From: a virus
DNA length: 36,652 bases
Direction: 5' to 3' (one strand)
IMG/VR virus record: IMGVR_UViG_3300013382_000003
Span: 1-36,652 of that record
The position numbers were made by a program, and so were the translations under genes. Positions 1-435 of the stretch are shown in pieces. The notes beneath the pieces were generated by a model. That model made no database searches and had not been told where the DNA came from. It saw nothing but the letters and a program-made list of their open reading frames with translations. How positions within the stretch are numbered: the first letter of the stretch is position 1; each line of letters begins with the position of its first letter.

Positions 1-162
1 GCTTAGCCCCGGTAAATTTTCGGCGCGGAGACGCTTGACCAGTGAGCTGTTACGCATTCTTTGAATGATGGCTGCCTCTGAGCCAACATCCTGGCTGTCT
101 TAGCGTTTCCACATCCTTACACACTCAGCGTGGACTTAGGGACCTTTGTCGGCGGTCTGGGC
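1..162. repeat. Terminal direct repeat, left copy
   Basis: 1-162 matches 36491-36652 base for base (offset 36490). Confidence 0.97.
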
Positions 163-435
163 CTTGTTTCGGGGCCTGGGAAAGGGCCGGCGTGCCCCTT
201 AGCCTCGCTTGCATGCACTGACCCGCAAGCCCATTTTTCAATTGGCACGGCGTCAGGTTTTGATGCCCTCCGCCATATCGCCGGCACGCGGTTTTAGGAT
301 TTCTTTCAATCCCCTTCCGGGGTGCCTTTCACCTTTCCCTCACGGTACTTGTTCGCTATCGGTAGCCGGACCGTATTTAGCCTTGCGGGGCGGTCCCCGC
401 GGCCGCCGATAGGCCACGGGATCGCGGCGATTGCC
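1..435 (-). rRNA. 23S (LSU) rRNA-derived fragment, truncated and internally deleted; not a functional rRNA gene
   Basis: The reverse complement of 38-95 reads GCCAGGATGTTGGCTCAGAGGCAGCCATCATTCAAAGAATGCGTAACAGCTCACTGGT. That is the 58-nt L11-binding GTPase-associated centre (E. coli ~1051-1108), with 5 differences from the E. coli sequence as I recall it. The reverse complement of 317-360 reads GATAGCGAACAAGTACCGTGAGGGAAAGGTGAAAGGCACCCCGG (E. coli ~445-490 region). The equivalent of roughly E. coli 600-970 is missing, with the junction near 175-185. Similarity fades at about 435. Confidence 0.85.

Follow-up and report, generated by a model that had tools for sequence, protein, structure and literature searches.

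The 36,652-nt viral sequence IMGVR_UViG_3300013382_000003 of IMG/VR (hereafter the window, meaning this whole stretch of DNA) carries on its minus strand an element of ~415 bases which is derived from a bacterial 23S ribosomal RNA (rRNA) gene and which belongs to the genome of a temperate HK97-like siphophage of the gut. The element consists of two 23S-homologous blocks joined by a short linker and was found in one phage species only, in which it forms a mosaic of tracts of different age. Our preferred reading, to which we give a probability of roughly 60%, is that it is a 23S pseudogene fragment of a Bacilli lineage that was captured by the phage and has recurrently undergone gene conversion in patches, and that it is not kept as a mimic of the ribosome or of its GTPase-associated centre (GAC).

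A first-pass annotation, made from the window sequence alone, had reported similarity to large subunit (LSU) rRNA on the minus strand. This was borne out by a search with the Rfam model LSU_rRNA_bacteria (RF02541), which matched the minus strand at 419..1 with 212.8 bits (E = 4e-66, gathering score 50). A second match at the other end of the window (minus strand 36652..36408, 131 bits) arises mainly because positions 36491-36652 copy positions 1-162 exactly. We aligned the element colinearly with the 23S rRNA of Escherichia coli (L017) and with its three nearest real 23S genes (L029, L097, and L118). The homologous stretches run from 413 to 195 (block 1, whose 5' edge falls between 400 and 413) and from 162 to 1 (block 2), and they are separated by one internal deletion of ~365 nt, close to the ~370 nt of domain II first thought to be missing. 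Block 1 is 86% identical over 219 nt to L118 and L097 in blastn, and block 2 is 93-95% identical to real Bacilli-type 23S genes. The linker that stands in place of the deleted segment is near-invariant across all copies of the element, with a single A/G site. The coordinates of these parts and of all other features are collected in table 1.

The complete 58-nt GAC described in the first-pass annotation is present (95->38), and the proposed 5' limit of homology at about E. coli position 395 also stands. The 3' limit had to be moved from ~1130 to ~1145. Homology ends at ...GGGGCTAAGC, that is, at window position 1, and does not run on to ~36481 as had been supposed: positions 36490-36471 are a terminator-like flank which is shared with a relative that lacks the element, the sister phage L001. 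Block 2 was originally assigned to H41-H45; it does contain the 5' strand of H41 together with H42-H44, but it includes no H45, and the 3' strand of H41, which closes the GAC domain, is absent as well. The Rfam alignment gives a different picture, with two deletions and with helix 2 and the closing strand of H41 retained. We rejected this picture on the basis of the nearest real 23S genes, which show one deletion. The placing of 419-386 on helix 2 is spurious, these bases being either colinear 23S (a hairpin at about E. coli 405-420) or phage flank, and so is the placing of 36490-36481 on the 3' strand of H41, where the bases are phage flank.

It is clear that the element is not a functional LSU gene. 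A working gene is ~2.9 kb long and comprises domains I-VI, and the real L097 and L118 genes match RF02541 over model positions 1-2925 with ~2,500 bits; in the element only model positions ~430-640 and ~1030-1190 are truly covered. Universally conserved columns deviate in 14 of 263 cases in the window and in 36 of 263 in the version of the element that most contigs carry. Of the columns on which E. coli, L118, and L097 agree, 134 lie in block 1 and 129 in block 2; the window departs from them at 9 and 5, respectively, and the common version at 11 and 25. No other rRNA or tRNA was found in the window, and thus no operon context of 16S, spacer tRNAs, and 5S. Rfam families other than LSU gave sub-threshold noise only (13-22 bits vs. 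gathering scores of 37-440), with no ribosomal protein leader at E <= 1. The GC content of the element (59% vs. 53%) points to a foreign composition.

To whom the fragment originally belonged can be read from block 2. The first-pass annotation had taken two motifs of the GAC, UCAGAGGC and GUAACAGC, for mutations of near-invariant bases. They proved to be natural variants. The loop variant UCAGAGGC (C1066/G1070) occurs in real 23S genes of >120 GTDB species, and the whole 58-mer of the window is identical (58/58) to three Bacilli-type genes, L029, L097, and L118, as compared with 53/58 to E. coli; because the 58-mer is identical to real 23S genes, neither motif can be ascribed to decay. Carriers of UCAGAGGC include many Omnitrophota, candidate phyla radiation groups, Solirubrobacterales, and some Bacilli, and the positions concerned are less invariant than textbooks suggest.

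Of 120 genome loci with the loop variant, only three contain the 58-mer without a mismatch, namely L029, L097, and L118, and these are also the best matches overall for both blocks. L097 (CAUUFA010000003.1, an uncultured Bacilli metagenome-assembled genome, MAG) and L118 (JALCLG010000001.1, a Bacilli MAG) carry 16S-23S-5S operons, and L029 (CAVAUJ010000150.1) is a 2.6-kb rRNA contig binned as Succinivibrio. A run of 77 nt in block 2 of the window is identical in L118 and L029. The exact 58-mer and the best overall identity together indicate that the fragment descends from a 23S gene of this lineage, and the donor is therefore an uncultured gut Bacilli lineage, which is most likely also the host of the phage. 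A search for the host 23S gene of the same samples, by way of a spurious open reading frame (ORF), returned no candidates. Unlike the donor gene, the element retains only ~380 of ~2,900 nt, lacks the H41 closing strand, has no 16S, 5S, or spacer nearby, deviates at universally conserved positions, and sits in a phage genome.

Further contigs were traced through the constant neighbor of the element, a convergently transcribed gene for a protein of 214 amino acids (aa). They belong to the same phage species (flanks 95-98.5% identical) and come from several ENA and Logan assemblies representing at least eight samples or assemblies; some related contigs are labelled pig gut metagenome. The element is present in eight of them (L004, L006, L007, L008, L018, L019, L021, and L022), and its junctions and linker are the same as in the window in every contig that reaches them. 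A ninth contig, L023, holds the 3' part of block 2 and the 3' junction and stops before the linker. A tenth, L020, contains no element sequence and breaks at the 3' edge of the element, ~45 nt past an ORF of an optional cassette described below. In L019 and L021, both ~37 kb long, the whole element lies in the contig interior.

Both flanks of the element are homologous to L001 (TerL 89% identical), upstream as far as about window position 417. Where the window has the element, L001 has an unrelated non-coding stretch of ~240 nt. We considered whether this stretch could be a further-decayed copy and rejected the idea, since homology is confined to the flanks; no Rfam match was found in it (L001 7200-7480). 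It ends in a hairpin, CCACCGACA-N11-TGTCGGTGG, followed by the same GGGTCTC..TTCATTTT flank.

That the element is an assembly chimera of a phage contig and a bacterial rRNA contig would agree with the fact that the repeat at the ends of the window is exactly rRNA block 2 and that several assemblies break there. On the other hand, whole elements are crossed inside long contigs, the deletion and the linker are identical in contigs from different assemblers and samples, and the linker and the shared decayed patches match no real 23S gene. Together with the synteny of the flanks with L001, the same junctions in many contigs make a chimera extremely improbable, and the element is a genuine part of the phage genome.

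The repeat itself deserves a comment. The last 162 bp of the window copy its first 162 bp exactly, which leaves a unit genome of 36,490 bp, and both edges of the repeat coincide with the edges of block 2. The contig ends of four other assemblies (L018, L020, L022, and L023) likewise fall inside or at the edge of block 2. The repeat was thus probably produced by the assembler, at a node that a real 23S gene or co-occurring alleles have in common with the element, and because it equals block 2 exactly and other assemblies break there, a direct terminal repeat label should not be read as a physical terminal repeat of the phage. Elsewhere, seven sister-phage contigs (L009-L015) all break 1.4-2.2 kb upstream of TerL, just upstream of HNH/TerS and within a span of ~800 bp, which points to hypervariability, or perhaps to the end of a genome, at the corresponding position.

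The distribution of the element is narrow. It is present in every contig of the phage species that covers the locus, and it is absent from all retrieved loci of TerL relatives, namely L001, L002, and L009-L015 (TerL 88-89%) and L003 and L016 (51%); the retrieved sequence spans the homologous slot only in L001, L003, and L016. Neither viral nor metagenome contigs matched a pattern written for the deleted architecture (GTACCGTGAGGGAAAGGYGAAA, a gap of 165-195 nt, AAGGTCCCWAAG), and patterns for the linker junctions had none in viral contigs and matched only the L021 contig in metagenomes. The search of phage databases that the first-pass annotation had proposed therefore places the element in this phage species alone. 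Twenty-six records of phage collections did match the query, all with ordinary undeleted 23S stretches. Such records are usually treated as host contamination, and the window shares with them a 23S signature in Rfam and BLAST within a "viral" record; they differ in that they hold plain 23S pieces on short or mis-delimited records, whereas the element is rearranged, has conserved junctions, and lies inside a complete phage genome. One of the undeleted stretches, at ~83.9-84.6 kb of MZ092003.1 (Paenibacillus phage Pd_22F; L145), lies in a gene-poor region near the end of a "complete genome" record and is probably host flank or contamination. We found no precedent in the literature searched for phage-borne 23S fragments or rRNA mimics.

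Alignment of all copies revealed two versions of the element. The rRNA-like version (A) occurs in the window and in L018 only, and L018, whose contig terminates at the same base as the window, is probably the same strain. A set of differences unites the remaining eight contigs, which represent the common version (B). All copies, of either version, share deviations at positions that are conserved in real 23S genes, and in several patches the resident version has diverged from real 23S by 12-22%.

Three patches distinguish the strains. In patch alpha the six other copies that reach block 1 have four changes in the near-universal GUACCGUGAGGGAAAGGUG motif, the patch sequence GAACAAGTACCGTGAGGGAAAGGTGAAA turning into GGACAAGCACCGTAAGGGAAAGGCG; three of these four fall among the 26 columns on which the three nearest 23S genes are unanimous. 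Patch beta shows the reverse situation, being decayed in the window and pristine (1/38) in the L006, L007, and L008 strains, where it includes a 40-nt exact run to the real 23S gene L029. Patch gamma, the H42-H44 core, is pristine in version A and strongly altered in the scored version-B copies L019, L021, and L006, and the five other contigs covering it have the same changes over the part that each holds. Between the versions, 20-21 of 98 core columns differ (~21%). The 1065-1073 loop of H43, which contains A1067, is replaced by a perfect or nearly perfect GAUGGCGGCC-GAUU-GGCCGCCAUC hairpin in eight of the ten contigs that cover the loop. In H44, G1093 is changed to U and A1098 to G in all seven version-B contigs that keep this helix. 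The copy in L004 has lost everything 3' of mid-H43 to the element end through a deletion between GCCGCC repeats.

To quantify the mosaic, we scored the window, L019, L006, and L021 at the columns on which the three nearest 23S genes are unanimous and counted the deviations (table 1). Deviations are clustered non-randomly (P-value = 7e-9, Fisher's exact test), and the patchiness common to all copies is also significant (P-value = 0.002). Tracts identical to real 23S and tracts of old divergence alternate along the element, and the alternation differs between close strains. In the same genomes, four-fold-site divergence of TerL, TerS, and the 214-aa gene is 0-15%, and the versions of the element differ by 0-3% outside the core. 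A core difference of ~21% exceeds both values, indicating that divergence in place is insufficient and that an import of sequence is needed. The young patches match the real-23S state in each case, so the simplest model is an old, drifting pseudogene which has been overwritten in patches. This pattern, which had not been foreseen in the first-pass annotation, leads us to infer that the mosaic arose by gene conversion, patch by patch, with host rRNA genes as donors.

A possible history of the element is as follows. Illegitimate recombination, the presumed mechanism of capture, would have placed a 23S fragment in a hypervariable, terminator-flanked accessory slot. The resident fragment would then have drifted and lost its L11/thiostrepton loop, and one strain would have lost half of it. 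Copies of the host rrl gene may occasionally overwrite patches of the element by homologous recombination, since long identical runs with these multicopy genes persist; the exchange could be carried out by host RecA or by the phage Erf, exonuclease, SSB, and RusA proteins, in a lysogen or during infection. Different patches would have been overwritten in different strains, some of them in the common ancestor of all sampled copies. The copy in the window would be so similar to rRNA because its strain has the freshest patches (alpha and gamma).

Both parts of this scheme have counterparts in known systems. Bacterial rRNA operons undergo concerted evolution through gene conversion, and the element resembles them in that a diverged copy appears to be homogenized patchwise by intact rrl, leaving pristine and old tracts in alternation. 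It differs in that the recipient is a phage-borne pseudogene, the conversion is sporadic and strain-specific, and the copy is not kept functional. Temperate phages also carry remnants of host genes and accessory inserts of the "moron" type. The element is similar to these in its foreign composition, its terminator-flanked hypervariable slot between modules, and its patchy occurrence among close relatives; unlike them, its cargo is a non-coding rRNA fragment, whose source gene is multicopy in the host and thus permits repeated gene conversion.

Several observations weigh against a converted pseudogene. In the window, <=10 nt of homology remain beyond the gamma tract, which makes two-sided patch repair awkward at that end. 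The element is fixed in the species despite the 12-22% divergence of its old patches, a long time for useless DNA to persist in a compact genome. The donor of the conversion was deduced from related MAGs, not from a 23S gene of the host in the same samples. Core changes in the common version tend to spare stems (8-9/56 paired vs. 11-12/42 unpaired columns; P-value = 0.13-0.31), two base pairs are compensatory (A-U to G-C, and U-A to U-G to C-G), a GNRA loop is kept (GUGA to GUAA), and H43 is remodelled to a perfect 10-bp hairpin. The remodelled H43, the preserved GNRA loop, and the fixation of the element in the species give a hint, though not a statistically significant one, of selection for plain secondary structure.

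The main rival reading is that the element is a structured non-coding RNA, exapted from an rRNA-derived scaffold that is kept for plain secondary structure and not for its rRNA identity; we regard this as unlikely, though worth attention. The element could be a stable RNA, it could serve the accessory slot as terminator or insulator, or it could be an RNA partner of the 214-aa protein, and in its fullest form the idea would be that the phage made a host 23S piece into a structured RNA module, possibly together with that protein, in an accessory or defence-type slot into which host rRNA flows repeatedly. Its presence wherever a contig of the species covers the locus, the retention of the inner H42, H43, and H44 stems, and the greater predicted stability of the H42-H44 core in version B (minimum free energy -36.9 to -42.2 kcal/mol, vs. 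-32.8) would all be expected of such an RNA. All four alpha changes lie at unpaired bases, terminator-like hairpins bound the element, a TTGACA hexamer upstream is conserved in L001, and in L001 the slot combines a homologous gene of 226 aa with another non-coding stretch. However, the covariation is not significant: of 28 native-fold pairs, two are compensatory, one is changed on one side, and three, all in H42, are broken, and 66 of 500 shuffles reach this score, with only four distinct sequences to compare. The paired/unpaired bias is not significant either, the fold of the whole element is not unusually stable (z-score -1.06), the L004 copy is truncated, no complete promoter was found, and the predicted fold of the 214-aa protein is not RNA-related. 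A role as a decoy is far less probable. The first-pass annotation had offered, beside a captured and decaying host fragment, a retained rRNA mimic, such as a decoy for L11/L10, for stalk-binding factors, or for a toxin that targets the ribosome. We considered a decoy for the L10/L11 stalk proteins, for GAC-binding factors, or for a toxin or antibiotic aimed at the GAC. Judged from the window copy alone, this would be attractive, as its GAC is complete, matches real 23S genes throughout, and has A1067 and A1095. Yet the intact 1051-1108 fold with the 1067 and 1095 loops is confined to the window and L018, the H43 loop and the H44 bases are altered in the version-B copies as described above, L004 has no H44, the H41 strand that closes the domain is missing, and sister phages have no element. 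We therefore find no support for a retained mimic, and a host fragment in decay agrees better with the nearest relatives being Bacilli 23S genes, the shared deviations, the loss of loops in most copies, the single truncation, and the absence from sister phages. Leaders of ribosomal protein genes, such as the L10 leader, are short, lie upstream of these genes, and mimic only local rRNA structure; by analogy their protein ligands would be those of the H42-H44 region, but the similarity of the element reflects descent from 23S and not mimicry. Taken together, a sequence-specific function of the element appears improbable.

Two further explanations concern exchange with, or action on, host rRNA. 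The element could be a homology arm that is retained because recombination at rrn benefits the phage, through integrase-independent integration, recombination-primed replication, or transduction. The mosaic indicates that exchange with real 23S genes happens, and the phage encodes Erf, an exonuclease, SSB, and RusA; but it also has its own tyrosine integrase ~14 kb away, the common version has exact runs of only 23-29 nt to real 23S genes, and no selection acts against decay of the element, which leaves this explanation improbable. We rejected an attP core with a fragment of a host gene: the integrase is ~14 kb away, and the fragment is internal to 23S and rearranged. Transcription running on from the 214-aa gene on the plus strand would read the element in the other direction and yield an RNA antisense to host 23S. 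In the window no plus-strand terminator was found between the stop of this gene (36451) and the element, the next one being at 574-588, and complementarity to real 23S includes the 77-nt exact run. The ~21% divergence of the core in the common version speaks against such an RNA, and in strains with the two-ORF cassette a bidirectional hairpin, GGACTACTAATTAGTAGTCC, separates the element from the plus-strand genes; we consider the antisense role very doubtful. A type III toxin-antitoxin RNA antitoxin was rejected as well, there being no tandem array inside the element, the only repeat being a 12-nt unit upstream of it, and no PADLOC match for its neighbors.

Minus-strand expression of the element as the tail of the early transcript, another suggestion of the first-pass annotation, is unlikely because terminator-like hairpins lie upstream on that strand at 1433-1411, 782-759, and 588-574. 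No complete sigma-70-type promoter was found on either strand around the element. The upstream flank (430-565), which may be an operator, a promoter, or an origin, contains an iteron-like GGCGCCTTTAA/TAGGCC repeat (12-nt unit, 2.2 copies, 438-464), and this repeat, the palindromes, and the TTGACA hexamer are conserved in L001 7060-7200. Downstream, the minus strand has terminator-like hairpins at 36492-36477 and 35756-35733, and the flank GGGTCTC.GG...TTCATTTT is common to L001.

The neighboring 214-aa gene belongs to a large, uncharacterized family with 716 representatives at E < 1e-3, in which P28, W32, H72, H73, and F83 are invariant. Its AlphaFold2 model is confident (mean pLDDT 88.5), and comparison of this predicted structure with PDB and BFVD gave no fold match in PDB and only uncharacterized viral matches. 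A resemblance to uL4 was pursued, starting from a phmmer match (E = 0.62) of the C-terminus of the 214-aa protein to the C-terminus of 7nhn_I, and was rejected; no Pfam Ribosomal_L4 match was found at E <= 10, and a 46-sequence profile had no uL4 match in PDB sequences. The neighboring ORFs received no Pfam, PHROG, or PADLOC assignment. In some strains the 214-aa gene is separated from the element by a cassette of two ORFs (106 and 112 aa), which have no Pfam or PADLOC match. Direct repeats, TTTTTCATTTT(G), flank this cassette, and the bidirectional hairpin mentioned above follows it. The cassette is absent from the window between 36451 and 36490, and L004 keeps only the 106-aa ORF. The slot between the early genes and the 214-aa gene behaves like a hypervariable accessory locus.

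Besides the structural and lysogeny genes of table 1, the window encodes a recombination set consisting of ERF (Erf), a PD-(D/E)XK nuclease (the exonuclease), SSB, and RusA. There are two HNH endonuclease genes, an HNH_3 gene at 11313-11906 (minus strand) in the recombination module and the packaging-associated gene at 34901-35335 (minus strand). Three adjoining minus-strand ORFs (2465-3400, 3253-4143, and 4494-5090) encode a SAM-synthetase-like protein and two N6/N4 DNA methylases; the former, with an S-adenosylmethionine (SAM) synthetase N-terminal-like domain, matches phrog_1569 (E = 1e-66). This group may be an anti-restriction or methylation module.

Table 1. Features of the window and of the 23S-derived element; fractions are deviating columns among those where the three nearest 23S genes agree
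Feature	Position	Strand	Remarks
rRNA block 2	1-162	-	~E. coli 985-1145: H41 5' strand and H42-H44
Patch gamma (H42-H44 core)	21-119	-	pristine in window and L018; 1/95 in window, 20-21/95 in others
58-nt GTPase-associated centre, complete	38-95	-	E. coli 1051-1108; duplicate at 36585->36528
Linker CACGCCGGCCCTTTCCCAGGCCCCGAAACAAG, 32 nt	163-194	-	in place of ~365 nt of domain II (H27 3' part to H40)
rRNA block 1	195-413	-	~E. coli 395-617: end of domain I, H25, start of domain II
Patch beta (H25 3' side to H26)	222-262	-	decayed in window (7/38); 7-8/38 in most copies, 1/38 in L006 strain
Patch alpha GAACAAGTACCGTGAGGGAAAGGTGAAA	327-354	-	pristine in window (0/26); 3/26 in others
Scored tract b1-5'			0/43 in window, L019, L006; 1/43 in L021
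Scored tract inter			7/56 in all four scored copies
Scored tract b1-3'			0/18 in window, L019, L006; 1/18 in L021
Scored tract b2-5'			6/38 in all four scored copies
Scored tract b2-3'			0/20 in window; 4-7/20 in others
Upstream non-coding flank	430-565	-	TTGACA hexamer (524-519), GGCGCCTTTAA/TAGGCC repeats, TTTTTCGAAAAA palindromes
Hairpin GCCGATTTTATCGGC with T-runs, terminator-like	574-588	bidirectional	between early genes and element
Terminator-like sites upstream of element	782-752; 1433-1410	-	
HTH repressor	13139-13486	+	
Tyrosine integrase	13799-15025	+	
Capsid	29079-30251	-	
Portal	30895-32166	-	
TerL	32123-34036	-	
TerS	34040-34846	-	
HNH, packaging-associated	34901-35335	-	adjoining TerS
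Terminator-like site downstream of element	35756-35733	-	
214-aa gene, uncharacterized family	35807-36451	+	convergent; constant neighbor of element
Hairpin GCCCGGCCTGGCGGGT then CTCGGTTTTT, terminator-like	36465-36492	-	directly after rRNA homology
Exact duplicate of 1-162	36491-36652	-	contig-end overlap; both edges are edges of block 2
Optional cassette, 106-aa and 112-aa ORFs	L006 2143-2806; L019 4664-5327; L023 4658-5321		between 214-aa gene and element

These results imply that an rRNA match in a viral contig need not mean contamination, since a rearranged 23S fragment can be a stable and heritable part of a phage. The element breaks assemblies at a predictable place. The results also warn against inferring an rRNA mimic from one genome, as the copy with the perfect GAC is an exception within its own species. 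Such a fragment ties a phage to a host lineage without cultivation, in this case to an uncultured group of gut Bacilli, and it records the exchange of DNA between phage and host rRNA operons. Should the less likely interpretation as a structured module be true, homology to rrl would make the element a built-in tag of the current host, and if the hint of selection on structure is real, the element would be a rare instance of an rRNA domain put to a new use as an RNA.

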